Of a DNA stretch of 64,000 bases, positions 8,217-39,529 are shown piece by piece. This DNA comes from Dehalococcoidia bacterium (GTDB lineage: Bacteria > Chloroflexota > Dehalococcoidia > Lucifugimonadales > UBA3495), in contig JASLXV010000033.1 in NCBI GenBank assembly GCA_030740155.1, positions 971-64,970 of the forward strand. The letters are read 5' to 3'. The notes beneath the pieces are model-generated. The model saw only the letters and a list, made by a program, of their open reading frames with translations. It searched no databases and was not told the origin of the DNA. Position 1 is the stretch's first letter, and each line of letters begins with the position of its first letter. Both the position numbers and the translations under genes were made by a program.

Positions 8217-8241
8217 GGCGGTTCCTCTCCGGGGACTCTCT

Positions 8242-9237
8242 TCAGTCTGGGGCGGCTTTCATGGTAATCCGCGTCCCCACCGTGTTTTGGACAAACGCGT
8301 CGGGCCGGGCTTGATACACAGCGCAGGCTGCCCGGTAGCCGGCGCAGTGGGCGGGAGAGATGATGGCGGGGTCAAGGGCTACCAGCGCGTCCACGACGGT
8401 GCCAATACGGTCGTGGAAAAAGGTCGGGCCCAGGTGAAAGCCGCCGATGACCGCATGGACCTGCGGAATGCCGGTGATGGCCTGGGCATGATGGACCGTG
8501 TTGACGATCCCAGCGTGTCCGCAACCGGAGAGCACCACCAGTCCCTTCCCTCGAAGGCTCACGACCAGGCCCTGGTCATCGCAAATCAACGGATCCGGTT
8601 CCAGGACCCCGTTTCTTATGGCTTGGTGAGCGGGCCAACCGGTCTCGAAGTCATTGGTGCGGGCCACTTGGCCGGTGACTAGAGCCATCCCCTCTACGAC
8701 GAAGGACGGGTTCTTGGTTTCGATTAGCTCGACGCCGGCGTCCCGGAGACCTTGCCGGGACGGTGGGATCAGCTGGTTCTGAACTTCGCCGTTGGGTCGA
8801 AGGGTAGCCCGATTCAGGTAGGCGTCTGGATGAAGAGTGAGAGGAAACCTCAAGTGTCCTAGCCGTTGACGCAAGCCGATGAGGCCCAGAGTGTGGTCCC
8901 AATGGCCGTGGGAGAACACAATACAGCTCCAGTCCTGGGGTTTCAACTCCAGGCAGTCCATGTTGTGGACCAACCCTTCCGGGGTCCCACCGGCATCGAA
9001 AAGGACCGAGCGGGTGATGCCGCCGCGGGTCAATCGGACGAGCATCGAGAGTCCGTGCCCGCCAACAAATTCAGTGTGCATCTCACCGTTGAGGAGGTTC
9101 GAGACGACCATGTTGTCTGCTCGAACATCAAGACGTTCGATGGCGCCGCCGCCCGCGGTGGTCCGATCAACGAGGTTCTCAAAAAGCGTGGTGATCTTGA
9201 CTTGGTCCACCGGGTCTAGCTGAATCGCCTCGCTCAT
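8242..9237 (-). CDS. MBL-fold metallo-hydrolase
   Basis: HGHWDHTLGL (HxHxDH) plus a later GCGHAG motif. Confidence 0.7.
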   Translation of the reverse strand: MSEAIQLDPVDQVKITTLFENLVDRTTAGGGAIERLDVRADNMVVSNLLNGEMHTEFVGGHGLSMLVRLTRGGITRSVLFDAGGTPEGLVHNMDCLELKPQDWSCIVFSHGHWDHTLGLIGLRQRLGHLRFPLTLHPDAYLNRATLRPNGEVQNQLIPPSRQGLRDAGVELIETKNPSFVVEGMALVTGQVARTNDFETGWPAHQAIRNGVLEPDPLICDDQGLVVSLRGKGLVVLSGCGHAGIVNTVHHAQAITGIPQVHAVIGGFHLGPTFFHDRIGTVVDALVALDPAIISPAHCAGYRAACAVYQARPDAFVQNTVGTRITMKAAPD

Positions 9238-9324: not shown

Positions 9325-9969
9325 CTAGTCCGCCGCCGGTGCGGGCTTCGGCTCCAGGGCGCCGGTCACGCCGATCATGCTCTCCTGGGTGACCAACTCG
9401 GCCAGCTCTTCCTCGGTCATATGCTCGGTGTTGGCGGGACGCTTGGGCAAAATCAGGTAGCGCAGGTCCGCCGTGCTGTCCATCACCCGCACCTCGACAG
9501 ATTTGTCAGGCTCGAAGCCGAACTCCCGCATCACGGACCGGGGGCTGCCCACCACGCGTGAGCGGTAGGCAAAGCCCTTGTACCAATCGGGCGGCCGGCC
9601 CAGGATGGACCGGGGATAGCAGGAGCAGAGGGTGCACACCGCCACGTGATGGACCAGGTCGGTGTTCTCCAAGACCGCGAGTCTGGTGACGACCTCGTGC
9701 AGCGAGTACCCCAGCTCTTGAATGGCGAACTCGGGGACGCCGATCAGGCGTTTCTTGAACTCCGGGTCCACCCAAGCGCGGGCCACAACCCGGGCGCCGT
9801 CCTTTGGCGATCGGGCGTCCAGAGCGTTCCCGGTTGCTTCCAGCTCTTCCGCCGTGAAGATTCCCTTCTCCACACACAGGGCCACGAGGGCCTCGGACCT
9901 GAGGGCGTAGTAGGCCGCGTTGGCCCCGTGGTGACTAGCTTGGGCATCATGCTCGTTGGCGCTACTCAT
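9325..9969 (-). CDS. Nitrile hydratase family alpha subunit, cobalt-type metal site
   Basis: VCTLCSCYP metal-binding claw (Thr, as in the Co type). The ATG at 9969 is preceded by AGGAG, which overlaps the upstream stop. The track ORF starts 6 nt earlier at TTG. Confidence 0.85.
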   Translation of the reverse strand: MSSANEHDAQASHHGANAAYYALRSEALVALCVEKGIFTAEELEATGNALDARSPKDGARVVARAWVDPEFKKRLIGVPEFAIQELGYSLHEVVTRLAVLENTDLVHHVAVCTLCSCYPRSILGRPPDWYKGFAYRSRVVGSPRSVMREFGFEPDKSVEVRVMDSTADLRYLILPKRPANTEHMTEEELAELVTQESMIGVTGALEPKPAPAAD

Positions 9970-9978
9970 GAACAACTC

Positions 9979-11629: not shown

Positions 11630-12916
11630 CTAGGCGCCCGGCTTTACGGGAATCCGGTCGAAGCCGGTGTAGGGGCGCAGGATATCCGGGATCACCACCG
11701 AGCCGTCGGCCTGCTGGTAGTTCTCTAGGATGGCGATGACCACCCGGGGCAGCGCCAGGCCCGAGCCGTTGAGGGTGTGGACCAACTCGGGACGGGCCTT
11801 CGGCTCCGGCCGGTAGCGGATGCGGGCGCGGCGGGCCTGGAAGTCGGTGCAGTTGGAGCAGGAGCTGACCTCCAGCCACTCCTGGCAACCGGCGGCCCAG
11901 GCCTCGATGTCGTAGGTCATGGCCGAAGGGAATCCCAGGTCTCCTTTGCAGAGTTGCAGGACCCGGTAGGGCAGCTCCAACCGGCGGCAGACATCTTCGG
12001 CGTCGGCCACCAGCTTCTCCAACTCGTCCTCCGAGGTCTCGGGGGTCACGAACTTGTACATCTCCACCTTGTTGAACTGGTGGACCCGCTTGATGCCCCG
12101 GGTATCCCGTCCGGCGGCGGCCTTCTCCCGGCGGAAGCAGGGCGTGTGGGCCACGTAGTTGCGGGGCAGGGAGCCGGGGGGCAGGACCTCGTCCCGGTAG
12201 AGATTGGTGATCGGCACCTCGGCGGTGGGAATCAGCCAGAGGTCGTCTTCGTCGTCGTGGTAGAGGTTTTCGCCGAACTTGGGCAGGTTGCCGGACCCTT
12301 CCATGGTCTCCCGTTTGACCAGCAGGGGGAGCATCGCCTCGGTGTAGCCGTGCTCCCGGGTGTGCAGGTCCAGCATCCAGGAGATGAGGGCTCGTTCCAG
12401 CTTGGCCCCGGCGCCGAACATGGTGTAGAACCGGCTGCCGGAGAGTTTTACGCCCCGCTGGAAGTCGATGAGGCCCAAATTCTCGCCCAGTTCCCAATGG
12501 GGAAGGGGAGTGAAGTCGTGGGTGCCGGGCTCTCCCCACGAGCGCACCACGACGTTGTTCTCTTCGCTGAGGCCGGGGGGCACGTTGGGCAGGGGAAGGT
12601 TGGGCATGCCCATCAGAATGGTGTTGAGCCGCTCTTCCAGGCCCCGGACGCTCTGTTCCAGCTGGCTGATGCTCTCGCCCACCCGGCGCATCTCCTGGAC
12701 GATCTCCGGTCCGGGCTCCTGGCCGGAAGCACGGGCCTGGCCGAGGCTCCGGCTGACGCGGTTGCGTTGTCCCCGTAGCTCGTCGCCCTCGGCGATGCCC
12801 CGGCGTCTCTGGGCGTCCAACTCCAGAAGCTCGGCCAGAGGGTCATCTTCTCCCCGCGATTCCAGCGCCCGCCGAACTAGGTCCGGGTCTTTTCGTATCA
12901 GGTCGATAGATAGCAT
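11630..12916 (-). CDS. serS: Serine--tRNA ligase
   Basis: Full-length class II aaRS with an N-terminal coiled coil (MLSIDLIRKDPDLVRRALESRG) and a conserved core. Confidence 0.95.
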   Translation of the reverse strand: MLSIDLIRKDPDLVRRALESRGEDDPLAELLELDAQRRRGIAEGDELRGQRNRVSRSLGQARASGQEPGPEIVQEMRRVGESISQLEQSVRGLEERLNTILMGMPNLPLPNVPPGLSEENNVVVRSWGEPGTHDFTPLPHWELGENLGLIDFQRGVKLSGSRFYTMFGAGAKLERALISWMLDLHTREHGYTEAMLPLLVKRETMEGSGNLPKFGENLYHDDEDDLWLIPTAEVPITNLYRDEVLPPGSLPRNYVAHTPCFRREKAAAGRDTRGIKRVHQFNKVEMYKFVTPETSEDELEKLVADAEDVCRRLELPYRVLQLCKGDLGFPSAMTYDIEAWAAGCQEWLEVSSCSNCTDFQARRARIRYRPEPKARPELVHTLNGSGLALPRVVIAILENYQQADGSVVIPDILRPYTGFDRIPVKPGA

Positions 12917-12970
12917 AAGTCTGGTGCCAACCTTACCACATGGCAGAGCGTCCCGGTCATGGCCCGCCCG

Positions 12971-14521
12971 TCACTCCGCAGCTTCGGGAGAAGACTCGGC
13001 CCCCTCCGCCTCCGGGCCGGGTTTGCCGGTGCGCATCTGGGGAAACAGCACCACATCCCGGATCGACGTTTGGCCTGCCAGCAGCATCACCAGCCGGTCG
13101 ATGCCCATTCCAAGCCCGCCGGTGGGCGGCATCCCGTATTCCAGGGCCAGCAAAAAGTCCTCGTCCAGGCGGTCGGCTTCGTCATCTCCCATCACCCGAT
13201 CCTGTTGCTGGCCTTCCATCCGCTGCCGCTGCACCGCTGGGTCGTTCAACTCGGAGTAGGAGTTGGCGATCTCCATCCCGGCGGCGAAGGCCTCGAAGCG
13301 TTCCACGTATCCAGGAGCGCCCGGTTTGGCCTTGGCCAGGGGAGACATCTCCACGGGGTAGTCCAGCAGGAAAGTGGGCTGGATCAGTTGGGGTTCCACG
13401 AAGGTGGATATCAGCTGGTCCACCAGCCGCCCCCGGCTCTGCCTCGGAGGAGCGTCCAGCCCTCGCCGGACCGCCTCCGCTGCCAGGGAGGCCTCGTCGG
13501 GGAATTCGTCGATGTCTATCCCGCTGCGGTTCTTCAACTCCTCGCGGAGGGAGACCCGCCGCCACGGGGGCGTGAAGTCGATGACGTGCTCCCCATAGGG
13601 TATCTGACAGGTGCCCTGGACCTCCTGGGCCACGCCGGAGACCATCGACTCGACCATCTCCATGACGGAGTTGTAGTCGGCGTAGGCCTCGTAGCTCTCT
13701 AGCAGAGTGAACTCGGGGTTGTGGTCCTGGTCGATTCCCTCGTTGCGAAAGACCCTCCCCAGCTCGTACACCTTGTCGAAGCCGCCGATAATCAGCTTTT
13801 TAAGGTACAACTCCGTGGCGATGCGGAGGTATAGCTGCTGGTCCAGGGCGTTGTGGTGGGTGACGAAGGGCCGGGCGTGGGCGCCGGCGGCCACGGGTAC
13901 CAGGACGGGGGTGTCCACCTCCAGAAAGCCCCGCTCGTCCAGGAATCTCCGGACGGTTCTGATTATCCAGCTACGCTGCTCGAAGACGGTCATCACGTCC
14001 GGATTGGAGATCAGGTCCAAGTACCTCTGCCGGTAGCGTATCTCCACATCCCGGAGGCCGTGCCATTTCTCAGGAAGGGGGCGCATCCCCTTGGCCGTCA
14101 GCGTGAGCCGGTGGGCCTCGATGGTCACCTGGCCGGTGCGGGTGCGGATCATGGGGCCGTTGACGCCCAGGTGGTCGCCAAGGTCCAGGTCCTTCAGCAG
14201 GTCGAAGGCCTCGCCCAGCACGTTCTGCCGCAGCAGTGCCTGGACGGTCCCGGAAGCGTCCCGCAGGTCCAGGAAGGCCGCCCGGCCCATGACCCGGATG
14301 GAGGTGATGCGTCCGGCCAGGGCCACTTCTCGGGTCTCCGGCTTCGGCTCCGCGCCGCTCTCCACGGCCTCGAAGAGCGCGATGGCGGCGGCGGCATAAC
14401 TGGTGCGCTCGAAGCGAGGAGGGTAGGGGTCGATTCCGAGCCCGCGAATGTGCTCCAGCTTGGTTTGGCGGCTGGCCAGCAGCCCTTCTTCTCGGTCCGG
14501 CATGTTATATCTGTCTCCCAT
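12971..14521 (-). CDS. lysS: Lysine--tRNA ligase (class II)
   Basis: OB-fold N-domain plus class II core (FRNEG, GMGIDRLVM). Confidence 0.95.
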   Translation of the reverse strand: MGDRYNMPDREEGLLASRQTKLEHIRGLGIDPYPPRFERTSYAAAAIALFEAVESGAEPKPETREVALAGRITSIRVMGRAAFLDLRDASGTVQALLRQNVLGEAFDLLKDLDLGDHLGVNGPMIRTRTGQVTIEAHRLTLTAKGMRPLPEKWHGLRDVEIRYRQRYLDLISNPDVMTVFEQRSWIIRTVRRFLDERGFLEVDTPVLVPVAAGAHARPFVTHHNALDQQLYLRIATELYLKKLIIGGFDKVYELGRVFRNEGIDQDHNPEFTLLESYEAYADYNSVMEMVESMVSGVAQEVQGTCQIPYGEHVIDFTPPWRRVSLREELKNRSGIDIDEFPDEASLAAEAVRRGLDAPPRQSRGRLVDQLISTFVEPQLIQPTFLLDYPVEMSPLAKAKPGAPGYVERFEAFAAGMEIANSYSELNDPAVQRQRMEGQQQDRVMGDDEADRLDEDFLLALEYGMPPTGGLGMGIDRLVMLLAGQTSIRDVVLFPQMRTGKPGPEAEGAESSPEAAE

Positions 14522-14633
14522 ACGCCCGGAGCGGGCGATGCCGGACGGAAATCAAGCGGCTCAGGCGGGCTCTTTCCCAGGGTCCTTTGGGGAAACCAGC
14601 GCCGGCCTATCGCAAGCGGCCGGCTGTGACACC

Positions 14634-15101
14634 CTACTCGATGGCAATGACTTCGAGCTTGATCTTGCCGGCCGGCGCGCTAACCTCGGTAATCTCGCCA
14701 ACCCGCTTCCCCAGCAGGCTCTTGCCGATGGGGGAGATGTTGGAAATCTTCCCTCTGGCGGGGTCGGCTTCGGCGCTGCCGGTGATGGCATACTGGTAGG
14801 TCTTTCCGTCCTGGTGATGTACCGTTACCTTGGCGCCCACCTCTACCGTTTCCCGTGCTCCTCGGCTTTCCTCAATGATGACGGCGTTGTTGATCATATT
14901 GTCTAGCGTGAGGGTGCGTCCCTCGATGAAGGCCATCTCGTTCTTGGCCTCCTCGTACTCGGCGTTGCCGGCGATGCTGCCCCGCTCCCGGGACTGCTGT
15001 ATTCGCTCCGCCACGTTGTGCCGCCCTACGGTCCGGAGACGCCCAAGCTCCGCCTGCAGGTTTGCCAGCGCTTTCCGGGATAAATAACTGGGCTGCGCCA
15101 C
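14634..15101 (-). CDS. greA: Transcription elongation factor GreA
   Basis: The GreA pattern runs from YLSRKALANLQAEL to the end. The start is moved to GTG 15101, 5 nt after GGGAGGAAAG. The 71-aa N-terminal extension in the track is Pro/Gly/Arg-rich junk. Confidence 0.85.
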   Translation of the reverse strand: MAQPSYLSRKALANLQAELGRLRTVGRHNVAERIQQSRERGSIAGNAEYEEAKNEMAFIEGRTLTLDNMINNAVIIEESRGARETVEVGAKVTVHHQDGKTYQYAITGSAEADPARGKISNISPIGKSLLGKRVGEITEVSAPAGKIKLEVIAIE

Positions 15102-15387
15102 AGCTCTTTCCTCCCAAGTACCCAGGCCAAGTACCCAGGCCAGACACGCAGGAAAAAACAATGCGGGAAATGGCGGACAGGGCCACCACTTCCCTTTCCC
15201 AGATTCTAATCCACCATATCCCTCGTGTAAAGCGGCGCCGGCGGCTGGAACCGGTGTCCGGCTCGGCCGGATCGGTCCCTTCCGCCGCGACAACCCGCTG
15301 CCTCGACGGGCCATCAGCTATCGGCGGGCTTCATGCCTGGCCGTCGCCGGAACGGGGGCGTGAATAGTGAGAGGAGGAGAACTGGGC

Positions 15388-15642
15388 GTGAAAAGGATCT
15401 TCTATCACCCGGGTTTACTGGCCGGGGCGGTGGCCGTGGTGCAGCACAATTTCGGGGTGTTGGGGAACCACTTTTCGGAGGTTGCGGAGGATCTGACCCG
15501 GACGTTGCGGGCCTTGGGGCCCGCAGCCGGTGGTCGCCCCCACCTGGATGGGGCATTTTCGGCGCCGGAGGCCGTGTCCCCGGGGGGGGCACGCGGGCCG
15601 GCGTTTTTTCGCTATACCGAGGAGACGCTGGTCATCTTCTGA
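15388..15642 (+). CDS. Hypothetical small protein (84 aa)
   Basis: GTG lies 8 nt after GAGGAGGAG, and a hairpin GCCGTG...CACGGC sits just downstream. No recognisable family. It lies in an otherwise empty 600-bp gap. Confidence 0.3.
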   Translation: MKRIFYHPGLLAGAVAVVQHNFGVLGNHFSEVAEDLTRTLRALGPAAGGRPHLDGAFSAPEAVSPGGARGPAFFRYTEETLVIF

Positions 15643-15704
15643 CCGCTGCCGTGAACGGGCCTGGCGCCCGGCACGGCGGGAGAAGCGATCCGGCCGGCCT
15701 GCCT

Positions 15705-16358
15705 CTAGGCCTCGGCGTCCGGACTCTCCCCATCAGCCGGCGTTTCATCGGCGCCAGCTTCTTCCGCGGAGACCGCTTCTTCTTCGGCCGCCACCCTGGG
15801 TTGCTCTATCCGGACCACCACGTCATCGGGGTCGGTCAGCACCGTCACGTTGCCGGGCAATTGGATGTCACCGGCCCTCACCACACCATCCGGATCGGTC
15901 AGAAGGTTCAGGTCTACCTCCGCGTGGCTGGGCATCTCCAGAGGCAGTGCTTCCACATCCAACTCGTGAAGCTGATGCATTATCGTACCGCCGGACATCT
16001 TGGCGCCCGGCGACTCGCCGGTGAGGGTGATGGGCACCTGCGCCCGTACCGGCTTGCTGACTTCCGCCACTAGCAAATCCACGTGGAGGAGATCGTCCCG
16101 CCTGGGGTCCCACTGGATCTCCCGGGCGAAGGCCAGTTGGTCGCCCTTCTCGCCCCGCACGCTGACCGTGATGGGCGTGCTGCCGCCGGCCTGGACCAAC
16201 GCCTGGACTAGCTTCGGGGCCTGGCACTGCAGGGCGCGGGACTCCACCCCCGGTCCATACAGGTGGACCGGGATGATTCCCAAGCGCCGCAACTGTTTTA
16301 CTTTCTTGCCCAGCGTGTCCCTGGGCTCTAGCTCTAATTTGATCGCCTGGCTGGTCAT
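15705..16358 (-). CDS. ctc: 50S ribosomal protein L25/general stress protein Ctc
   Basis: N-terminal L25 domain (LELEPRDTLGKKVKQLRRLGIIPVHLYG) plus a Ctc-type C-domain and an acidic tail. Confidence 0.85.
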   Translation of the reverse strand: MTSQAIKLELEPRDTLGKKVKQLRRLGIIPVHLYGPGVESRALQCQAPKLVQALVQAGGSTPITVSVRGEKGDQLAFAREIQWDPRRDDLLHVDLLVAEVSKPVRAQVPITLTGESPGAKMSGGTIMHQLHELDVEALPLEMPSHAEVDLNLLTDPDGVVRAGDIQLPGNVTVLTDPDDVVVRIEQPRVAAEEEAVSAEEAGADETPADGESPDAEA

Positions 16359-21753: not shown

Positions 21754-22380
21754 TCAGTGCATCGGCGAGAAGGAGGCGGGCACCAATATCTTGTTCTCCT
21801 GCTTGACCAGGAATTCCCGGGTGGCCGGCGGCCAATGGGGACTCGCGGAGGCCTCGGCCCGGACCCGATTGCGCTCGGCCAGGTCCTTGTAGGGCCAGAT
21901 GTGGACCCACTTGTTCAGCCCGCCGATTTCGCTGTACATGCCGGCCGCCAGAGGTGAAAACTTCTCCCGGTGGGGAACCGCCTCCTCCCACAACTGGACT
22001 ACCTTGGACATGGTTCCGGTCCGGTAAGTGTAGGTGCGCATCTCGTAGATGTCGCCCAAGGCCTGGTCGCCACCCAGGGGCCGCATAAATGAGGCGGGGA
22101 GGAAGATCTCCGACTCCTGGGCGATGTACATCGCGGGATCATTGTGTGGGGGCCAGTTGGGGTCCTTCGACGCCTCAGCGCGAATACGATTGCGCTCCTC
22201 CACACTCTCGTAGGGCCAGACGTGGATCACCTGGTTCAGGGGTCCGATTTCCGTGTGCCAGAAAGCGCCCAGCTTGGAGAACTTCTCCCGGAAGGGTAAT
22301 GCTTTGGCGAAATTCTCCTCGAACTGGGGCACCGACCCGGGCTTGAGAGTATAGGTGCGGACTTCGTAGATCATGGCCAC
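21754..22380 (-). CDS. Tandem NIPSNAP-domain protein
   Basis: Two copies of the pattern Y(E)(V/M)RTYT...G..........G.LNQ/KW.HIWPY..L.ER..VRAEA...P.WPP. Confidence 0.75.
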   Translation of the reverse strand: MAMIYEVRTYTLKPGSVPQFEENFAKALPFREKFSKLGAFWHTEIGPLNQVIHVWPYESVEERNRIRAEASKDPNWPPHNDPAMYIAQESEIFLPASFMRPLGGDQALGDIYEMRTYTYRTGTMSKVVQLWEEAVPHREKFSPLAAGMYSEIGGLNKWVHIWPYKDLAERNRVRAEASASPHWPPATREFLVKQENKILVPASFSPMH

Positions 22381-22657
22381 TCCTTGCTCCGATTTGTATC
22401 AATGCCTGCCCACATCGGTGGGTGGCTGTGGCGAAGGCGCTCGATTCACCGGCCTAGTGTAGCAAAAACCGTGTGCGCGGGCAAACACTCGCGGCCGCGG
22501 TGTGCCCGGCCTTGAGGATACTTGCCCTGACGTCCCGAGAGAACCCCGCGCATTTGCGATCCAGTCCCGCTTCAGTGGACTGGATCGGGGGGCCGGCTCG
22601 GGCGCGGTGTCGCCGTCGGCCCAGGCAGGTGATAGAATCTCACCAGGCGTACAGATC

Positions 22658-23425
22658 ATGACTCAAAGAGCGGGCCCAGCCACAACTCAACCAGGTGAAC
22701 TCTTGAGCAAGGCGAGGCTCGAGGGGCTGCTGGCCGGCCGGAAGCCGTCGACGGATGGTCCGGCGTCCTCGGTGTACCTTCGCTCCGGGGAAGCGGAGGC
22801 TTTCTTGAAGGCGTCCGGCCCCGAAGGCCGGGAGTGGCGCGAGCTTCTGCAGCGGATAGGCCCCCCGGTGTTGAACTCGGACACCGGCATCGCCGGTCTG
22901 AGGGCTGGCCCTGAGGCGGTGGTGATCCTGCCGCCCTTTCCGCTGGCCGCAAGCGAGCTGATCCCCGCCTGGGATGTCTCTCCCCTGTTGGGAGTGTTGG
23001 AGACGAAATACACTGTTGGGGTGGTTTTGCTCCGGCTGGGCCGCTTTCTGATCGCGGTCTACCGGGGCGGGCAGGTCCTGTCCTCAAAGACCGATACCCG
23101 GTATGTGAAGGGGCGCCACCATGCCGGCGGTACCTCGCAGAAGCGTTTTCAGCGCATCCGGGAGGGCCAGGTGCACCGGCTCTACGTCAAGGCCTGCGGG
23201 TTCGTCCGGAGTCAGTTCGACCCCTTCAGCGAGCAGCTTGACTACATCTTGTTGGGCGGCGAGAGATTTACCCTGGATGGGTTCATGAAGTCGTGCGATT
23301 ATCTGGAGCGCTGGCGGGGTAAGATCCTGGGCCGCCGGTTGAACGTGCGCGAGCCGAAGCACGATACCCTGGAAAGGGTGGGTGGCATGCTGCTGGAAAG
23401 CCGGGTCTGGGTCATCGAGTGGTGA
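22658..23425 (+). CDS. eRF1/Vms1-like release-factor-fold protein (acVLRF1-type putative peptidyl-tRNA hydrolase)
   Basis: The loop YVKGRHHAGGTSQKRFQRIREGQ resembles the eRF1 GGQSxxRFxRLR catalytic loop, and its context (VGVVLLRLGRFLIAVYRGGQVL, LLGGERF) matches the acVLRF1 pattern I recall. The start is moved to ATG 22658. Confidence 0.6.
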   Translation: MTQRAGPATTQPGELLSKARLEGLLAGRKPSTDGPASSVYLRSGEAEAFLKASGPEGREWRELLQRIGPPVLNSDTGIAGLRAGPEAVVILPPFPLAASELIPAWDVSPLLGVLETKYTVGVVLLRLGRFLIAVYRGGQVLSSKTDTRYVKGRHHAGGTSQKRFQRIREGQVHRLYVKACGFVRSQFDPFSEQLDYILLGGERFTLDGFMKSCDYLERWRGKILGRRLNVREPKHDTLERVGGMLLESRVWVIEW

Positions 23426-23435
23426 CGCGGACCCG

Positions 23436-25868
23436 ATGTGTGGGAATGGTTTGTTCGACGACGCTGCTGAAATAACCCGCGGTGAGCCCCAGGTTGACGC
23501 CGTGGGGCCAGCCAGCATTGTGGGAGGGTTTTCCGAGTCGGTGCGCCTGCTGGAGTTCGACCAGATCCGGCGAAAACTGGCTTACTACGCCCGCACCGTT
23601 ATGGGCCGCGAGGCGGCCCTCTCCCTGACTCCGTCCGCCGACCTGCTGGAGATCGTCGCCCGGCAGCAGGAGACTTCGGAGGCCCGGCGGTTCCTGGACG
23701 ATGGCGGGGCTTTGGAGTTCGGCCCGGATATCGATTTCCGGGAATACGTCCATCGGGCTTTACTGGGCGGCCTCTTGCGTGGCGAGGAGTTGTGCGCCAT
23801 CCAGGGGCTGCTGGCGTGCGCCCGTTACGACCGGACCAACCTCTCCCGCCACGAGAGAACGCCCCTGCTCTCCGGAGTGGGGGATAACCTACCGGACTTG
23901 GGGGCCCTCGAGAGAGCCATCGGTTCCGCGATCAGCCCTGCGGGAGAAGTCCTGGATGGCGCCAGCCCGGCCTTGGGCCAGCTTCGCCAAGAGGCCCGGT
24001 CGGCCCACGGACGATTGAACGAGGTCATGGAGCGCAACCTCCGCCGACTGCAACGCCAGGATGTGATCCAGGAGCCGATCGTTACCCAGCGCAACGGCCG
24101 GCTGGTGCTGTTGATCCGGGCCGAGTTGAGGTCTCGGGTTCCCGGCATCGTCCACGACGTTTCCGACAGCGGGGCCACCGTGTTCGTCGAACCGTTGCCG
24201 GCCATCGACCTGGGCAACCGGTGGCGGGAAAACCGGCTGGCCGCGGAGCGGGAGGAAGAAAGAGTCCTGCGGAGCCTCTCCGACGCGGTGGGCCGGGCCG
24301 GCGAGGACCTTCTACTGACACTGGACCTGCTGGCCCGCCTGGACCTGGACATGGCCAAAGGACGCTACTCAGCGGCCGTGAAGGGCGTTGCGCCGGAGGT
24401 TTCCGACCAGTCCGGCCAAATGCGCCACCTGCGGTTATCCGGAGCGCGCCATCCCCTGCTCTCCGCGGCCGTGGTCCCCGTTAGCCTGGAGTTGGGAGGT
24501 GAGGAAGGGGTGATGCTGATCACCGGGCCCAACGCCGGAGGGAAGACCGTCACCCTGAAGACGGTGGGGCTGCTGGCCCTGATGGCTCAGGCCGGGCTTC
24601 ACGTTCCAGCCGATGAGGCCCTCTTTCCCCGGCGGGATGGAATTTTCGCCGACATCGGCGACCAGCAAAGCATCGAGCAGTCCCTGTCCACCTTCAGCTC
24701 TCACATCCACAATATCCTCTCCATTATGGAGCGGGCGACGGTCGACTCCCTCGTGCTGCTTGACGAGCTGGGTACCAGTACCGACCCGGAGGAGGGCTCG
24801 GCCCTGGCCGGAGCCATCTTGGGCCACTTTCGAGACCAAGGCGTATTGTTGGTGGCGACCACCCACCACCGGGGCGTGGCCCGGTACGTCCAGGAGCAGC
24901 CGGGGATGGTCAATGCCAGCGTGGACCTGCATCCCCAGACCCTGGAGCCAACGTGTAAGGTCACCCTGGGCCTGCCGGGGCGCAGCTACGCTCTGACCAT
25001 CGCAGCCCGCCTTGGCCTGCCCCCGGACATCATCGAGCAGGCCAGAGCCTCCCTATCGCCGGAGGCGCGGACCACCGAGGACCTGCTGGGCGAGATTCAA
25101 GAGGAGCGACGGGTCATCGATGTTTTGCGCCGGGAAGCCGAAACCGCCCATCTCCAGGCCAAGCAGCAGCAGGCGGAGGTTGAAGCCCAGCTAGCCTCGG
25201 TGGAAACCTCGAAGGTGGAGTTGGTCGAGGAGGCCCGGCAGGAGTTGCAGGACCGGATCAGTGACCTGCTGGCCCGGCTTCAAGAGGCGGAGCGGGCGCT
25301 GGACCGGCCCGCCCCCCGCAAGGTGCTCCAGGAGGAGCGAGACCGGCTCACCGAAACCCGCCGGCAGCTCAGCTCGCCTCGTTGGGAGCCGATTGAGGTG
25401 CGGCGGATTCCGTGGCAGGAACGGATCAAGAGCGGCGACCGGATTCACGTTCGGGGCATCGCTCGCTCGGTGGAGGTGATCACCCCGCCCGACGACCAGG
25501 GCTTGGTGGAGGTGCTGGTGGGAACCATGCGGGCCAAGATACCGGTGTACCAGGTGGAGCACAAGGTGGAGGGTCATCAAGCCGCGGCCGAGCATCAGGT
25601 GTTCTTCAGCCGCCCCACCGGGCGCCGGACCGCCACCGAGATCGACGTCAGAGGCCTTCGAGCCGACGAGGCGTTGGCCCAGGTTGAAGGATTGCTGAAC
25701 GACGTTGCCCTAGATGGCTTGCGCTCAGCTCGCATCATCCACGGCAAAGGCACCGGCGCGTTGCGCCTGGCCGTGCGGAACTACCTGCATGGACACCCCC
25801 TGGTGGCGGCGGCGGCCTCCGCCGAAGGCCCCGGTGGAGAAGGGGTAACCGTGGTGGAGTTGAAGTAA
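23436..25868 (+). CDS. mutS2: Endonuclease MutS2 (MutS-family ATPase with C-terminal Smr domain)
   Basis: Walker A ITGPNAGGKTVTLKT, DELGTSTDP, a long coiled coil, and a C-terminal Smr domain (IDVRGLRADEA...IIHGKGTGALR). The first 18 codons of the track ORF overlap the upstream gene, so ATG 23436 is used (provisional). Confidence 0.9.
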   Translation: MCGNGLFDDAAEITRGEPQVDAVGPASIVGGFSESVRLLEFDQIRRKLAYYARTVMGREAALSLTPSADLLEIVARQQETSEARRFLDDGGALEFGPDIDFREYVHRALLGGLLRGEELCAIQGLLACARYDRTNLSRHERTPLLSGVGDNLPDLGALERAIGSAISPAGEVLDGASPALGQLRQEARSAHGRLNEVMERNLRRLQRQDVIQEPIVTQRNGRLVLLIRAELRSRVPGIVHDVSDSGATVFVEPLPAIDLGNRWRENRLAAEREEERVLRSLSDAVGRAGEDLLLTLDLLARLDLDMAKGRYSAAVKGVAPEVSDQSGQMRHLRLSGARHPLLSAAVVPVSLELGGEEGVMLITGPNAGGKTVTLKTVGLLALMAQAGLHVPADEALFPRRDGIFADIGDQQSIEQSLSTFSSHIHNILSIMERATVDSLVLLDELGTSTDPEEGSALAGAILGHFRDQGVLLVATTHHRGVARYVQEQPGMVNASVDLHPQTLEPTCKVTLGLPGRSYALTIAARLGLPPDIIEQARASLSPEARTTEDLLGEIQEERRVIDVLRREAETAHLQAKQQQAEVEAQLASVETSKVELVEEARQELQDRISDLLARLQEAERALDRPAPRKVLQEERDRLTETRRQLSSPRWEPIEVRRIPWQERIKSGDRIHVRGIARSVEVITPPDDQGLVEVLVGTMRAKIPVYQVEHKVEGHQAAAEHQVFFSRPTGRRTATEIDVRGLRADEALAQVEGLLNDVALDGLRSARIIHGKGTGALRLAVRNYLHGHPLVAAAASAEGPGGEGVTVVELK

Positions 25869-25889: not shown

Positions 25890-27200
25890 TCAGCTACCGC
25901 CGAACTCCGCCCGGAATTCTCCGTCCAAGCTGAACTCCTGCACCCGGTGGTTCCCCGTATCGGCAACGAAGATGAATTCTGCTTGGTCAACCGCTATCCC
26001 GGCCGGATCCCTGAACTGGCCCTCGCCGCTGCCCTCGGTGCCCCATTCCCTGAGAAAGGTTCCGCCCGTCAGGAATTTCTGCACCCTGTGATTGCCGGTA
26101 TCGACGACGTATATCCGATCTTCCGACTGCTCGTAAACGATACCGCCGGGGCTCTGGAATTGGCCATCACCGTCGCCCTGGATTCCCCATTGCCTTTGGT
26201 ACAAACCGGAAGAGGTGAACTTTTGCACCCGGTGGTTCCCCGTGTCGCTGATGTAGACAAAGCCGTCGTCGTCCCTGGCTATGCCACCGGGATCCTGGAA
26301 CTGGCCGTTGCCGCTGCCCTCGGAGCCCCACTGGTCGAGGAATATGCCGAGGGAGGTGAATTTCTGCACCCGGTGATTCCCGGTATCGACCACGTAAACG
26401 AACTTCCTATCCTCATCGACGAAGACGGCAGATGGCGAGATGAACTGGCCCTCGCCGCTTCCCTCACTGCCCCACTCGATGACCAAGGCGCCGGTGGTGG
26501 TAAATTGTTGTATCCGGTGGTTACCGGCATCGGCCACGTAAAAAGACCTGTGTTCTGAGTCGAACGCCGCGCCCGCTGGCTCCAGAAACTGGGCTGCGCC
26601 GGGTCCCTCGCCGCCCCACTCAATGACAAAGTTGCCGGTCCCAGTCAACCGTTGCATCCGGTGATTCCCAGTATCGCTTACATATAGAAACGCATTTGTT
26701 TGATCGAAGGCTATTCCCTCGGGCCGCTTGAACTTGCCCTCCGCACTGCTTCCGGCTGGAGTGGGAGTCGGCGTGGGGGTAGCCGTGGGGGCCGCCGTGG
26801 GTGTTGGCTCCGGGGTAGAGGTCGGCGCCGGTGTTGACGTTGGCATAGGGGTCGCCGTCGGGACCTTCGTGGGTGTGGCAGTGGGATTGGGAGTCGGCGC
26901 GGCAGTGGGGACCGGCGTGGGAGTAGCTACCGGGGCTGGCGTGGTAGTGGGGACGGCCACGGGTGTTGGTGTAGGCGTTGGGGCCGGGCTGGGTGTCGCG
27001 GTACTGGTAGGCTGTGGGGTCGCGGCCGGGACCAAAGTGGCCGTGGGTTGAAGAGAAATCGTTGGAACCGGCAGCGCGGTAGTGGGGACCGGGGTGGCCG
27101 TGGGGACTGCGGTGGGAGTGGAGGTGCGCGGTGAGACGCCGCAGGCCACCGCCAAAGCTAGTAATGCTGAAACCGCGAATGCCTGAGCTAGTTTCCTCAT
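25890..27200 (-). CDS. Secreted/lipoprotein NHL-repeat (six-blade) protein with a long Pro/Thr-rich linker
   Basis: Signal peptide [20 protein letters not shown], about 120 aa of PT-rich low complexity, then six repeats of (Y/F)V(A/S/V)DTGNHR(V/I/M)Q(K/Q/E/R)(F/L). Confidence 0.85.
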
Positions 27201-32058: not shown

Positions 32059-32376
32059 CTAGCTCTCCAACCCCAGGGCGAAGTGGATGGCGGAATCTAC
32101 CGCTTGAAGCTTGATGAGGTGCAGGCTGGCAATGTAACGTTGGAGCGCAGCTTTGGGAACGGTGGTCATGCTGTCGAGATTCGCCGCACAACTCGTGGGC
32201 AAACCGTCTTCCGGCCCCAGCGGCACCTCCGTTGGTATCCCCCTGACTCGCCTCGTGACAGGAGCCACGGTAACCAATTCCCGGTAAATATAAGCTTCGT
32301 CACGAGAAATCAAGACCACTGGCCGGTGCCCGGCCGGAGGGGGTAGCTCGGCCCACCAGATTTCGCCGCGCCTCAT
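32059..32376 (-). CDS. mazF: MazF/PemK-family toxin (mRNA interferase)
   Basis: RRGEIWWAELPPPAGHRPVVLISRD...VAPVT...PTEV is the PemK pattern. ATGA overlap with the upstream antitoxin. Confidence 0.8.
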   Translation of the reverse strand: MRRGEIWWAELPPPAGHRPVVLISRDEAYIYRELVTVAPVTRRVRGIPTEVPLGPEDGLPTSCAANLDSMTTVPKAALQRYIASLHLIKLQAVDSAIHFALGLES

Positions 32377-32648
32377 CTGCTAAACTCTTCTTCCCATGAC
32401 TCCGCGTCGAAGGCGTAGTGTAAAGTCGACTCTGCCACCACGCGTTCATTTCGAGTCTCCGGATACTTTTGGTAGCCTCTTATGTACCGCTGTACGTCCT
32501 CCCGCTCTTTCACCCGCCGCAGGTGTTCCTCCAGCGCGCTACGGAAGACCTGGCTGCGGCTCGCGCCCGTGGAGTGGCGCTCTTGCTCCACCGCCTCCAA
32601 CAGTTCGTCGGGGATGCTGATCGCTATCTTGGCCATGGGCACACCCAC
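32373..32648 (-). CDS. Ribbon-helix-helix (CopG/MazE-like) antitoxin
   Basis: KIAISIPDELLEAVEQ....GASRSQVFRSALEEHL is an RHH motif. The start may be ATG 32636. Confidence 0.7.
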   Translation of the reverse strand: MGVPMAKIAISIPDELLEAVEQERHSTGASRSQVFRSALEEHLRRVKEREDVQRYIRGYQKYPETRNERVVAESTLHYAFDAESWEEEFSR

Positions 32649-35249: not shown

Positions 35250-36536
35250 TCAGGCCGAAGCCTTGAGCGCCGCCTCGGCGGACCCGATGGTCTGGTCGAT
35301 GTTGGCCTCGGTGTGGGCCACCGAGACGAATCCCGCCTCGAACTGGGAGGGAGCGGTGTAGACGCCCCTTTCCAGCAGGGCGTGGAAGTACCGGCCGTGC
35401 CGGGCCGCGTCCGACTTCTCCACCTGGGCCAGCGTTTGCACCGGCCCCGGGTTGAAGAAGCCGGTGAACATGGAGCCGACCCGGTTGATGGTAGAGGGCA
35501 CCTCAAGGCGGCCGAACACCTCGGACAAACCCCCGGTGAGCCTGCCCGCCAGGGATTCGAGTCCTTCGTAGACGCCGGGGCGCTGCAGCTCCTTGAGCGC
35601 CGCCGTTCCAGCGGCCACGGCCAGGGGATTGCCGGACAGCGTGCCCGCCTGGTACATGGGGCCCAGGGGAGCGACCACCTCCATGATGTCCCGCCGCCCA
35701 CCGTAGGCGCCCACCGGCAGGCCCCCGCCGATGATCTTGCCCAGGCAGGTGATGTCGGGCGCGATGCCGTAGAGACCCTGGGCGCCGCCGTAGGAGACGC
35801 GGAACCCGGTAATCACTTCGTCGAAGATGAGCAACGCCCCGTGTTGGGACGTCATTCTCCGCAATCCGTCCAGGAATCCGTCCGACGGCAGCACCACCCC
35901 CATGTTGCCCGCCACCGGCTCCACGATAATCCCGGCGATATCCGTTGGATAGGCGGCAAACAGCCGCTCCACCGAGGCCAGGTCGTTGTAGTCGGCCAGC
36001 AGCGTCTCGGTGGCGTAGGAGGCGGGGACCCCGGCACTGGTGGGCACCCCGTGGGTCAACGCCCCGGAGCCGGCCTTGACCAGCAGGCCGTCGGCGTGGC
36101 CGTGATAGCAGCCGGAGAACTTGATCACCTTGTCGCGGCCGGTGAAGGCCCGGGCCATGCGGATGGCGCTCATGCAGGCCTCGGTGCCGGAGCTGACCAG
36201 CCGCACCATGTCCACCGAGGGCAACGCCTCGCAGATGAGCCGGGCCAGTTCGACTTCCTGCTCCACCGGCGCGCCGAAGCTGGTGCCCCCCCCGGCGGCC
36301 TTTTTAACGGCGTCGACCACCGCCGGGTGGGCGTGGCCCAGCACCAGGGGGCCCCAGGAGCCCAGATAGTCGATGTACTCGTTGCCGTCCACGTCCCAGA
36401 CCCGGTCGCCCTGGGCCCGGTCGATGAAGGGAGGGGTCCCGCCCACGGCGCGGAAGGACCGCACCGGGCTGTTGACCCCGCCGGGGATGTACTTCTGGGC
36501 TTGTGAAAAGAGTTCTTCTGACCTGGAAAGATTCAT
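35250..36536 (-). CDS. hemL: Glutamate-1-semialdehyde 2,1-aminomutase
   Basis: Full-length class III aminotransferase with HemL motifs ([18 protein letters not shown]). Start set at ATG 36536. Confidence 0.9.
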
Positions 36537-36615
36537 AGACCGACCTTCAAGCAAATATCGTTTTCACCCCGTCTCGTTGACGGGGGGTAGTTCAGATTGG
36601 GGTGAGCGACGGAGG

Positions 36616-37599
36616 CTATTCTATCTCTTTTAGCCAGCGGGCGGCTTCTTTGGCGTGGTAGCTCAAGATGATGTCGGCGCCGGCCCGTTTGATGGAGGTC
36701 AATAGCTCCATGGTCACCATCTTTTCGTCGACCCAGCCCTGGCGGGCCGCCGCCTTGACCATCGAATACTCACCGCTGACATTGTAGGCGGCCAGGGGCA
36801 GGTCGAAACGCTCCCGCGCCTGGCGGATGATGTCCAGATAGGAAAGCGCCGGCTTGACCATGACGATGTCGGCGCCCTCGGCGATGTCGCTCTCTATCTC
36901 CCGCATCGCCATGCGGACGTTGGCCGGGTCCATCTGATAGCTGCGACGGTCGCCGAATTGGGGCGTGGAATCGGCGGCCACCCGGAAGGGCCCATAGAAG
37001 GCGGAAGCGTATTTGGCGGCGTACCCCATGATGGGCGTATCGGTGTACCCTTGATCGTTCAGTGCCTGCCGTATCGCCCAGACCTGCCCGTCCATCATGG
37101 CGGAAGGGGCGACCAGGTCGGCCCCCGCCTGGACGTGGGAGACGGCGGACCGGGCCAGCAGGTCCAGGGTCTTGTCGTTGTCCACCCGGCCATTTTCGAT
37201 GACGCCGCAATGGCCGTGGTCGGTGTACTCGCAAACGCAAACGTCGGTGATCACATGCATGTCGGGCACGGTCCGCTTGATGGCCCGGATCGCCTCCTGA
37301 ACGATGCCCTCCGGGTCATACCCCTCGGTTCCCAGAGGGTCCTTCTCCGCGGGCAGCCCAAAGAGGAGAACCGACGGAATGCCCAGCTCGGCCACTTCAC
37401 CAACCTCCCCGGTCAACTGGTCCAGGGAGAAATGGTAGCAGCCCGGCATGGGCTCGATGGGCTCGCGCACTCCGTTGCCGTGGGTGACGAACATGGGGTA
37501 GACGAACTGGGCCGGGGAGAGGCGGGTCTCCCGGATCATGTTTCTCAACGGTTCCTGTCCCCGCAGGCGGCGGAGCCGCAGCTCCGGAAAGCTAACCAT
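36616..37599 (-). CDS. hemB: Porphobilinogen synthase
   Basis: RLRRLR N-terminus, the Cys-rich zinc site DVCVCEYTDHGHCG, and VKPAL with the active-site Lys. Confidence 0.9.
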   Translation of the reverse strand: MVSFPELRLRRLRGQEPLRNMIRETRLSPAQFVYPMFVTHGNGVREPIEPMPGCYHFSLDQLTGEVGEVAELGIPSVLLFGLPAEKDPLGTEGYDPEGIVQEAIRAIKRTVPDMHVITDVCVCEYTDHGHCGVIENGRVDNDKTLDLLARSAVSHVQAGADLVAPSAMMDGQVWAIRQALNDQGYTDTPIMGYAAKYASAFYGPFRVAADSTPQFGDRRSYQMDPANVRMAMREIESDIAEGADIVMVKPALSYLDIIRQARERFDLPLAAYNVSGEYSMVKAAARQGWVDEKMVTMELLTSIKRAGADIILSYHAKEAARWLKEIE

Positions 37600-37645
37600 G
37601 GGTCCCTCCGATTTCGTAAGGGCTGCCGGGGACCCCCTCTCTTAT

Positions 37646-37701
37646 CTCCCCCTTCGTAAGGGGGAGAGGACCAGTTCCTTCCCCATTACGAAGGGGGAAG
37701 G
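37646..37701. repeat. Two REP-like hairpins of the CCCCCTTCGTAAGGGGG family in opposite orientation, with a TAGGATGGGG tail
   Basis: CTCCCCCTTCGTAAGGGGGAG (37646-37666) and CCTTCCCCATTACGAAGGGGGAAGG (37677-37701), followed by GTAGGATGGGGG. Confidence 0.75.
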
Positions 37702-37713
37702 GTAGGATGGGGG

Positions 37714-39243
37714 TTACCCCGCACTAAACCCACTTCCAAAGTGTTGGACGAGCGCTTCGACCAGCCCTTCGACGGTATGGCGCTCGGCCACCAGGTCGAC
37801 ATGCAAGCCCAACTCGCGGGCCGTGGCCGCGGTCGTCGGGCCGATGCACGCTATTATACTGGATTTCAGACCCGATCCGTCGCCGTCCAGCGCTTCCAGC
37901 AGGTTGCGCACCGTGGAGGAACTGGTGAAGGTCACCACGTCCAGCCGCTGGTCCAGGGCCTCCCGGGCCAGGGCGCCTATGTTCTCCGGAGTGACGGTGC
38001 GGTAGGCGGCCACTCGCTCCACCCTGGCGCCGAAACCGGCCAGTCCCCGGGCCAGTGCGTTCCGGCCGATATCGGCCGTTGGAAGGAAAACCGGCACGTT
38101 CGTCCAGTCGCGGCCCGAAAGCTCCTCCAGCACCGCCTCCGATACCGACCTGGCGGGCACGAAGTCGGCGATGAGGCCGTGACGCAGCAGCGCTTCGGCC
38201 GTAGCCGGTCCGATCGCTCCGATCAGCGCGTTCCCGAAGGCTCGGGCGTCCCGGCGGGTTTCACCCCGTTCCAGGCGGCCGAATACCGCCTCCACCGCGT
38301 TGATGCTGGCAAAAAACACCCAGCGAAAGTCGCCGAGCCGGGCCAACGTGGCGTCCAACTCGGCGTAATCGTCCAAGGGGGCCGTCTGAATAGTGGCTAG
38401 TTCCACCGGCTGGGCGCCCAGGTCCGCCAGCAGGCCCCGCAGCCTGGACGCCTGGGTCCGCGACCGGGTGATCAAGACCCTCTTGCCGAACAAGGGGCGG
38501 CGGTCGAACCAGCGGAGCTGCTCCCGCAGCTCCACCACCTTCCCGATGACGGCGATGACCGGCGGCTCCAGCCCGGCCTCCCGGCCGCGGGCGAGGATGT
38601 TGTCCAGGCGGCCGGTGACGGCAACCTGCCGCGGCCAGGTGCCCCAATGGACCAGGGCCACCGGCGTGTCCTCCGGCATCCCGTGGCGGTGGAGGGTGGC
38701 CAGGATGGATTCCAGCCCGGCCCAGCCCATCAGCACTACCAGAGTGCCGCCGACCCGAGCCAGGGCCTCCCAAGAAACGGTCGATTCCGGCTTCGACGGG
38801 TCCTCGCTGCCGCTGATCACGGTGAACGTCGTGGCAATGCCGCGGTGGGTGATGGGAATGCCGGCGTAGGCCGCCGCGCCAATGGGCGACGTTACTCCGG
38901 GGACAATCTCAAAGGTGATGCCGTGCTCGATCAGGGCCAGGGCTTCCTCACCGCCCCGGCCGAAGACGAAGGGGTCGCCGCCCTTGAGGCGCACCACATC
39001 CAGTCCGGCGAGGGCCCGGTCGACCAACACCTGGTTGATCTGCTCCTGGGTCAGGGCCTGCCTGCCCCGCTCCTTGCCCACGAACACCCGCTCCGCCGAA
39101 TCCGGGGCCGCCTGGAGGAGCGACGGGTCCAGCAGGCGGTCGTAGACCACCACCTGGGCCGATTCCAGGCATCGCAGCCCCTTTACAGTGAGCAGCCCCG
39201 GGTCGCCTGGGCCGGCGCCCACCAGGTAAACTCTACCGGGCAT
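37714..39243 (-). CDS. cobA-hemD: Fused uroporphyrinogen-III C-methyltransferase / uroporphyrinogen-III synthase
   Basis: N-terminal SUMT (VYLVGAGPGDPGLLTVKG) followed by a HemD-like C-terminal half of about 250 aa. Confidence 0.85.
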   Translation of the reverse strand: MPGRVYLVGAGPGDPGLLTVKGLRCLESAQVVVYDRLLDPSLLQAAPDSAERVFVGKERGRQALTQEQINQVLVDRALAGLDVVRLKGGDPFVFGRGGEEALALIEHGITFEIVPGVTSPIGAAAYAGIPITHRGIATTFTVISGSEDPSKPESTVSWEALARVGGTLVVLMGWAGLESILATLHRHGMPEDTPVALVHWGTWPRQVAVTGRLDNILARGREAGLEPPVIAVIGKVVELREQLRWFDRRPLFGKRVLITRSRTQASRLRGLLADLGAQPVELATIQTAPLDDYAELDATLARLGDFRWVFFASINAVEAVFGRLERGETRRDARAFGNALIGAIGPATAEALLRHGLIADFVPARSVSEAVLEELSGRDWTNVPVFLPTADIGRNALARGLAGFGARVERVAAYRTVTPENIGALAREALDQRLDVVTFTSSSTVRNLLEALDGDGSGLKSSIIACIGPTTAATARELGLHVDLVAERHTVEGLVEALVQHFGSGFSAG

Positions 39244-39267
39244 ATCCCTCGTCCCTCATCCCCCTGG

Positions 39268-39294
39268 CCCCCTTCTCCCGGAGGGAGACGGGGG
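39268..39294. repeat. GC-rich hairpin CCCCCTTCTCCC gga GGGAGACGGGGG
   Basis: Read directly. It is preceded by the string CCCCTGGCCCCC, which also occurs next to the pmbA intragenic element. Confidence 0.6.
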
Positions 39295-39361
39295 GAACCT
39301 TGGAGGATAGCAATTGCACTGGTTGTGACTTAGTGCTCCGCCAGCCCAGTTGCTGATAAAG

Positions 39362-39456: not shown

Positions 39457-39529
39457 ATCCCGTATGAACCAATTTGACTAAGTACCGGGCAACGAAAAGC
39501 CCCGGCACCGCCGGTTGTTGGATCAAGCA

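Follow-up and report, generated by a model that had tools for sequence, protein, structure and literature searches.

The comparative data indicate that two adjacent genes of a Dehalococcoidia bacterium, one encoding a Vms1-like release factor of the acVLRF1 family (hereafter VLRF1) and the other encoding MutS2, probably form an operon for a two-step ribosome-rescue module in which MutS2 splits the ribosome and VLRF1 releases the nascent chain. Both genes lie on the plus strand of a 64,000-nucleotide (nt) stretch of contig JASLXV010000033.1, referred to as the window, to which all coordinates refer unless a locus is named. The proposal builds on observed features, namely the protein families, the fold, the conserved motifs and an operon linkage that is kept in two gene orders.

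The VLRF1 gene is an open reading frame (ORF) of 255 amino acids (aa) at 22658-23425 (plus strand), opening at ATG 22658 and closing with TGA 23423-23425. The longest ORF over this region opens at GTG 22502, yet ATG 22658 is the likely start because the homologues are about 255 aa long and align from residue 1. The initial annotation of this DNA had reported the ORF, its loop motif, its stop codon and a distance of 10 nt to the first mutS2 ATG, and all of these sequence statements are confirmed. Its further claim of a release-factor fold is borne out by profile searches, in which the protein scores 83.1 bits against PF18859 acVLRF1 (E 2.6e-23, residues 119-241), well above the Pfam cut-off of 27.1, and also matches Pfam baeRF_family10 and eRF1_2. 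The Pfam search of the protein returned neither eRF1_1 nor eRF1_3, and in the 255 aa it found no Rei1-like zinc finger, ankyrin repeats, coiled coil or VIM, leaving the VLRF1-type core alone. The product is an acVLRF1 protein that folds like the eRF1 middle domain and carries a GGTSQ loop. NCBI labels its relatives as 'acVLRF1 family' or 'Vms1/Ankzf1 family peptidyl-tRNA hydrolase', an enzyme name that is itself a prediction. The gene and its parts are as follows.

22658..23425, plus strand: acVLRF1-family gene (Vms1-like release factor, aeRF1 superfamily), from PF18859, the AlphaFold model and Foldseek
22658..23002, plus strand: N-terminal alpha/beta domain, residues 1-115, acidic (isoelectric point (pI) 5.2), from the secondary structure of the model
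23003..23422, plus strand: predicted eRF1 middle-domain-like (RNase H-fold) catalytic domain, residues 116-255, basic (pI 10.2), from PDB profile and Foldseek matches
23099..23170, plus strand: loop and next helix RYVKGRHHAGGTSQKRFQRIREGQ, residues 148-171, counterpart of the eRF1 GGQ loop and of the Vms1 R288/GGSQ loop, from profile alignment

Structure prediction, which the initial annotation had proposed as a check, leads to the same fold. The AlphaFold (AF2) model, built on a 120-sequence alignment, has a predicted local distance difference test (pLDDT) score of 87.8, and in Foldseek it is matched best by archaeal aRF1 (4af1, E 9e-10) and by eRF1, with Balon, Pelota/Dom34 and Vms1 ranking after them. 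The middle domain superposes on 8hku_ARF1 with a root-mean-square deviation of 3.3 across 128 columns and on 4crm with one of 3.4; Vms1 on the 60S subunit (6r84_R) is matched at E 3.6e-4 with the top query TM-score, 0.44, among the PDB matches. Sequence profiles of PDB entries likewise retrieve aRF1 (4af1, E 1.8e-11; 3agk), and in the profile alignment GGTSQ of VLRF1 stands opposite GGQSA of aRF1. Residues 147-159 have low pLDDT, which suggests a flexible loop. In the N-terminal domain, a PPFP motif (nt 22931-22942) contains an invariant P92, its other positions being invariant or nearly so, and hhalign comparison with the subgroup that is not linked to MutS2 shows that the window's subgroup has an additional helical insert (about residues 46-70), a candidate surface for contact with MutS2.

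Residues 149-171 (nt 23102-23170) read YVKGRHHAGGTSQKRFQRIREGQ, within which residues 157-168, GGTSQKRFQRIR, comprise a GGxSQ loop followed by a helix with several conserved Arg residues; GGxSQ is the motif that Burroughs & Aravind (2019, PMC6514570) defined for acVLRF-1. Among 81 sequences of the window's subgroup, H154, G157, G158, S160, R163, R166 and R168 are invariant. In yeast Vms1, R288A and G292A/G293A are null alleles, whereas Q295L is strongly impaired yet weaker (PMC5989216). R153 and G157/G158 are the counterparts of Vms1 R288 and G292/G293, in keeping with the conservation pattern seen here.

The neighbouring gene, which had been taken for mutS2, encodes a genuine MutS2 of the ribosome-splitting type, for which homology predicts binding to collided ribosomes and ATP-dependent splitting. 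Its product scores 735.4 bits against TIGR01069 (E 8.6e-221, above the cut-off of 400), carries MutS_V and Smr domains, and matches, with residues 37-810, residues 7-785 of the disome-bound B. subtilis MutS2 (7qv3_v, E 5e-137) collinearly. Its features, with the spacer that precedes it, are these.

23426..23435, plus strand: spacer of 10 nt from the VLRF1 stop to the first mutS2 ATG, from the sequence
23436..25868, plus strand: mutS2, 810 aa from ATG 23436 (GTG 23520 as alternative), from TIGR01069 and the B. subtilis alignment
24513..25055, plus strand: MutS domain V ABC-type ATPase, PF00488, E 4.1e-34
24525-24548, plus strand: Walker A motif GPNAGGKT, located in MutS2
24750-24773, plus strand: Walker B motif LVLLDELG, located in MutS2
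25434..25547, plus strand: putative KOW/SH3-like MSSS domain, PF20297, 21.8 bits, E 1.6e-4, cut-off 26.8
25641..25865, plus strand: Smr domain, PF01713, E 7.7e-21
25644-25661 and 25740-25757, plus strand: Smr motifs DVRGLR (D-x-R) and HGKGTG, aligned with DLRGER and HGKGTG of 7qv3_v

The MSSS stretch scores under the Pfam cut-off and occupies the position of the KOW region in the collinear B. subtilis protein, and Pfam gave no MutS_I match, that is, no mismatch-binding domain I, in the window's MutS2. An Smr D-x-R motif marks the non-cleaving splitting type (DLR in B. subtilis), while D-x-H marks the SmrB nuclease (Park et al., PMC10897456); with its D-x-R motif, the window's MutS2 therefore probably spares mRNA. 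The start of mutS2 could instead be GTG 23520, with a gap of 94 nt rather than 10, because the TIGR01069 and B. subtilis alignments begin only at residue 34-37 and the 29 codons after ATG 23436 are weakly conserved relative to the closest relative (locus L031), in which both ATG 23436 and GTG 23520 are kept. For either start, the promoter/terminator scan found no terminator-like hairpin between VLRF1 and mutS2.

Across genomes, the adjacency of VLRF1 and MutS2 far exceeds chance and background synteny. A species-level survey with VLRF1 as query and one genome per GTDB species yielded 80 loci, all of them Dehalococcoidia or unclassified Chloroflexota metagenome-assembled genomes, with VLRF1 proteins 43% to 80% identical to that of the window. 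In 74 of the 78 informative loci (80 minus two with truncated flank), mutS2 lies downstream of VLRF1 on the same strand. The next most conserved neighbours are enoyl-CoA hydratase (46/80), NIPSNAP (29/80) and rubrerythrin-VIT1 (26/80), and de novo clustering of the 80 loci brought up no further near-universal neighbour. The stretch between the VLRF1 stop codon and the conserved N-terminal part of MutS2 has a median length of about 138 nt across loci and measures 118 nt in the window. A scan of Joint Genome Institute (JGI) metagenomes with MutS2 as query added just six loci, as a query made of one protein retrieves close relatives alone; VLRF1 stands directly upstream of mutS2 in four of the five contigs that contain upstream sequence.

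The order and strand of the pair are retained even where mobile elements have entered the gap between the genes. Such insertions occur in L012 (9449-9898), L015 (829-1380), L018 (8991-9440), L035 (8941-10329, minus strand) and L076 (9087-9365), and consist of same-strand IS200-like Y1 transposases, a DDE_5 transposase and a gene for a YafQ toxin; other inserted ORFs matched no family. Since the large gaps often carry these transposases or the toxin, they look like secondary insertions. The short gap separating VLRF1 from MutS2 is a recurrent landing site of selfish elements.

The linkage was followed beyond the window's subgroup through an exhaustive profile search for acVLRF1, which returned 1,119 cluster representatives with an E-value of at most 0.001 and from which two further subgroups were examined. 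In a Dehalococcoidales-type subgroup, whose VLRF1 and MutS2 are 34-38% and about 39-40% identical to those of the window, the order is reversed to MutS2 followed by VLRF1 in all four loci (L099-L102; MutS2 at about 2580-5000, VLRF1 at 5001-5760). The genes are separated by 55, 56 and 14 nt and overlap by 4 nt in L102, the upstream flank of which is unlike that of the other three. The initial annotation had named an adjacency restricted to this one genome as grounds for abandoning the idea; the pair instead recurs in most surveyed loci and, inverted, at 34-40% identity. An adjacency that outlasts deep divergence and an inversion of gene order argues for functional coupling and strongly against inherited synteny. 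As a separate observation, the reverse-order loci carry a SIR2-family gene convergent right after the pair (4/4) and a chagasin-like Inhibitor_I42 gene upstream (3/4); the SIR2-family gene of the window (43924-44730) lies far from VLRF1-mutS2.

In the most likely model, MutS2 would recognize collided ribosomes and split them, with VLRF1 being supplied from the same transcript. VLRF1, which has no stop-codon-reading domain, would then bind the 50S-peptidyl-tRNA complex on the A-site side through its basic RNase H-fold domain, and its flexible R-H-x-x-G-G-x-S-(Q) loop would enter the peptidyl-transferase centre and detach the nascent chain. The chemistry could be ester hydrolysis or, as ANKZF1 is reported to do, removal of the CCA end from the tRNA, and the 50S subunit would be freed after chain release. 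The VLRF1 step draws on homology to Vms1/ANKZF1 and eRF1 together with the gene linkage.

The proposed module can be placed among several known systems. Within the acVLRF-1 family, the window's VLRF1 shares the GGxSQ loop, the conserved Arg residues in the next helix and a score above the Pfam threshold, and differs in its lower NCBIfam score, the insert at residues 46-70 and its operon linkage to MutS2. Vms1/ANKZF1 (eVLRF-1), which acts on 60S-peptidyl-tRNA, belongs to the same clade, has no codon-reading domain either and has in common with VLRF1 the R-x-x-x-GG-(x)-S-Q loop with the essential Arg and Gly-Gly; like Vms1, VLRF1 would act after a dedicated splitting factor. VLRF1 differs from Vms1 in lacking zinc-finger, ankyrin, coiled-coil and VIM elements as well as a Cdc48/Ltn1 context; its loop is one residue longer (GGTSQ vs GGSQ), it is paired with the MutS2 ATPase instead of the splitting machinery of eukaryotes, and its release activity is a prediction. 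It is a clade relative of Vms1 and not an orthologue.

The MutS2 of the window is full-length and collinear with that of the B. subtilis MutS2-RqcH/RqcP-Pth pathway, with the same D-x-R/HGxG and ATPase motifs, but where B. subtilis relies on Ala-tailing by RqcH/RqcP and release by Pth, the window has a Vms1-like gene attached to mutS2. Pelota/Dom34 or eRF1 acting with ABCE1 likewise combine an aeRF1-superfamily protein with a subunit-separating ABC-type ATPase; VLRF1, however, is without their N and C domains, MutS2 is a MutS-type clamp rather than a twin-ATPase, and the pairing described here is a genomic one. ArfB and other single-component bacterial rescue factors resemble VLRF1 in being small and codon-independent, VLRF1 being a predicted peptide releaser, yet they have an unrelated fold (bacterial release factor (RF)-PH domain as opposed to archaeo-eukaryotic RNase H-like), and VLRF1 is without the C-terminal mRNA-channel helix of ArfB and is linked to a splitting factor.

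A number of observations weigh against the proposed module. What each protein does biochemically, which acts first and whether VLRF1 and MutS2 touch are inferred, and in B. subtilis it is RqcH/RqcP tailing and Pth that release the chain after splitting (PMC11317155). The linkage also has gaps: four loci of the survey with sufficient flank have no MutS2 nearby, and in the fifth JGI contig (MutS2 49% identical) VLRF1 is on neither side of mutS2. The score of VLRF1 against NCBIfam NF041024 is 107 bits, under the cut-off of 125, which makes the protein a divergent subgroup relative to the NCBIfam model. Furthermore, no mutS2 neighbour was found for the GGQSQRRFERNRE-loop subgroup (seven genes looked up, eight loci, L085-L092), and a published survey found neither mutS2 nor rqcH in 3,213 Actinobacteriota genomes. 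Non-linked subgroups and mutS2-less Actinobacteriota together imply that the acVLRF1 family needs no MutS2 in general. MutS2 linkage is therefore a property of two acVLRF1 subgroups and not of the whole family, and, judged by comparative genomics, it so far appears confined to uncultured Dehalococcoidia-type Chloroflexota.

The variability of the loop Gln belongs to the same set of counterpoints. In the window's subgroup, 74 of the 81 sequences keep Q161; the other seven, which belong to two separate clades (loci L032, L036, L042, L050; L012, L015, L018), have Ala or Ser instead. VLRF1 lies at about 8001-8750 in most of these loci and at 70-813 in L015, and mutS2 is still adjacent in all seven. 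In the reverse-order subgroup (n=117), the loops are GGSSQ in 52 proteins, GGSSA in 50 and GGSSS in 15, the Gln thus being replaced in 65 (56%). Of the initial annotation's emphasis on a shifted catalytic Gln, the residue itself stands in the window's VLRF1, while the weight given to it was too great. With the Gln variable in the MutS2-linked subgroups, a strictly GGQ-type mechanism is not under selection there. R153, H154, the Gly-Gly and S160 nevertheless stay invariant or nearly so despite the loss of the Gln, and a His at GG-3 and a Ser at GG+2 are nearly invariant across all subgroups. The conserved chemistry is independent of the Gln side chain, which is compatible with backbone-assisted hydrolysis or with ANKZF1-type cleavage of the tRNA CCA end. 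Because the Gln is dispensable and the Arg, His, Gly-Gly and Ser are fixed, tRNA 3'-end cleavage might be favoured over GGQ-type hydrolysis; ANKZF1 has been reported to cut the tRNA CCA end (PMC7026593, PMC11317155).

The GGQSQRRFERNRE-loop proteins, 208-271 aa long, are homologous to the window's VLRF1 across 240 columns and are without the insert at residues 46-70. Their loci include a SAR202 contig (L090) and a Gaiellaceae (actinobacterial) contig, and in L089, L090 and L091 VLRF1 lies beside MR_MLE and GFO_IDH_MocA genes; some lineages may have both acVLRF1 paralogues. A tblastn search for actinobacterial context via plasmids gave only haloarchaeal aRF1 genes.

The same loss of the Gln raises the question whether VLRF1 might act mostly as a non-catalytic A-site helper of MutS2 splitting, in the manner of Pelota/Dom34 or eRF1 with ABCE1, leaving release to Pth or RqcH. 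An aeRF1-superfamily protein beside an ABC-type ATPase mirrors Pelota-ABCE1, Pelota and Dom34 are among the structural matches, and linkage stays tight although over half of the reverse-order proteins and two clades of the window's own subgroup have lost the Gln. Bacterial RFs, however, keep substantial hydrolysis with a small residue at the Gln of GGQ, a tolerance that speaks against reading Gln loss as loss of catalysis. VLRF1 also has neither of the N and C domains by which Pelota and eRF1 contact the decoding centre and the ATPase or GTPase that partners them, and R153, H154, the Gly-Gly and S160 are near-invariant, with R153 and the Gly-Gly matching residues essential for Vms1 release (PMC5989216). 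A helper role is therefore considered unlikely. Less likely again is an adjacency without functional meaning, in which VLRF1 would be a stand-alone specialized release factor that shares the mutS2 neighbourhood in one bacterial class. The 2019 paper that defined the family describes prokaryotic VLRF-1 as stand-alone and makes no mention of MutS/Smr (Burroughs & Aravind, PMC6514570), the GGQSQRRFERNRE subgroup is never beside MutS2 in the loci looked up, and the linked cases are all Dehalococcoidia or unclassified Chloroflexi. Yet the pair occurs in 74/78 loci when flanking genes reach 46/80 at most, it outlasts an order inversion at 34-40% identity down to the 4-nt overlap in L102, and its order and strand are kept despite mobile-element insertions between the genes; together these make mere synteny very improbable.

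Two further readings have only a slight chance of being correct. MutS2 could be DNA-directed as an anti-recombination endonuclease, with its RNase H-fold partner aiding nucleic-acid processing: published work characterizes the MutS2 of Thermus and Helicobacter as a recombination suppressor and nuclease, and the VLRF1 core is an RNase H-like fold (PMC6514570). The characterized members of the partner's release-factor superfamily, however, all act on ribosomes, the window's MutS2 shares its architecture and D-x-R Smr motif with the ribosome-splitting B. subtilis protein, and PADLOC gave no significant match to an anti-phage defence family, so that a role on DNA is highly improbable. The slimmest chance of all falls to VLRF1 as a Balon-like ribosome hibernation factor, an idea that arises from 8v9l_z and 8rdw_B among the Foldseek matches (E 4e-7 to 6e-5). 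Balon has a three-domain aeRF1 architecture with a C domain that binds EF-Tu, no GGQ-like motif and, typically, stress operons beside RaiA (PMC10901736), whereas the window's VLRF1 has two domains, a conserved GG-x-S-Q loop and a place beside MutS2; on architecture and motif, identity with Balon is rejected.

The two-step module of MutS2 and VLRF1 also raises the question of what becomes of ribosome quality control (RQC) in these bacteria. A published survey of 41 Chloroflexota genomes found RqcH in 26 and mutS2 in 35, and a tblastn search with the N-domain of B. subtilis RqcH (7aqc_R) gave no match in the window and 92 loci, which at 1.44 Mb are a tiny part of the genomes. In E. coli ΔssrA ΔarfA, rescue by RqcH-RqcP has been shown. 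It is conceivable, and is put forward tentatively, that some Chloroflexota run a minimal two-protein RQC in which MutS2 splits and the Vms1-type factor of the same operon ends the 50S-bound chain directly; such a system might, as the initial annotation had suggested, act without RqcH/RqcP tailing. A literature search found no report of VLRF1-mutS2 linkage, and the MutS2 papers examined are silent on Vms1-like neighbours. With prokaryotic VLRF-1 described as stand-alone in 2019 and no dedicated bacterial RQC termination factor known as of a 2024 paper (PMC11317155), the pairing of these known families appears new. Specifically, a known releaser family is attached to a known splitter, both already described; comparative genomics supports the attachment well, and the biochemistry is a prediction.

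The surroundings of the pair in the window complete the description. The promoter of the pair is presumed, by position, to lie in the following region.

22381..22657, no strand assigned: intergenic region, presumed promoter of the pair

A divergent NIPSNAP-family gene (21754-22380, minus strand) borders this region on its other side. No sigma-70-like consensus was found in 22381..22657, where the promoter/terminator scan gave nothing above background, and an Rfam scan around the pair matched no family. The G+C content of VLRF1 and mutS2 is 0.64 and 0.67, compared with 0.635 for the window. Directly downstream of mutS2 and convergent to it, 25890-27200 (minus strand) encodes an NHL-repeat beta-propeller of 436 aa with a long Pro/Thr/Ala-rich N-terminal linker, homologues of which occur in only 8 of 80 related loci. 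Upstream, translation and transcription genes occupy 11630-16358 (minus strand), namely seryl-tRNA synthetase (11630-12916), a class IIb aminoacyl-tRNA synthetase (12971-14521), a GreA ORF (14634-15314; called gene 155 aa) and ribosomal protein L25/Ctc (15705-16358); no pth follows the L25 gene in the window. A tetrapyrrole cluster at 35250-42426 (minus strand) comprises a class III aminotransferase (HemL-like), ALAD/HemB, a methylase-HemD fusion, porphobilinogen deaminase and a NirDL/AhbAB-like siroheme decarboxylase, a content that suggests an alternative, siroheme-dependent haem route. Further ORFs include a pair of PemK toxin and RHH antitoxin at about 32059-32636 (minus strand), called in the near-identical contigs L001-L004; a 216-aa protein at 9325-9975 (minus strand) that matches the nitrile hydratase alpha chain at full length (E 2e-72) and, weakly, the Frankia-type ribosomally synthesized peptide family; and long overlapping ORFs at 4474-6018 (plus strand) and 4678-5991 (minus strand), the plus-strand one of 514 aa having no Pfam match.

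These findings bear on a pathway that is currently described in bacteria as splitting by MutS2 or other splitters, after which RqcH/RqcP add an Ala tail and the general enzyme Pth releases the chain. A Vms1-like gene beside mutS2 across deep divergence and in both orders offers a concrete candidate for the missing bacterial RQC terminator and links two families that had been analysed separately, VLRF-1 (2019) and MutS2 (2022-2024). In the future, this small, soluble two-protein system would be well suited to asking whether the chain is released by hydrolysis or by CCA cleavage, what role the loop Gln plays and how the substrate passes from the splitter to the releaser. If the minimal two-protein pathway is real, VLRF1 would be the first dedicated bacterial RQC termination factor, and the pairing of a splitter with a Vms1-like releaser would predate eukaryotic RQC or have arisen independently of it.

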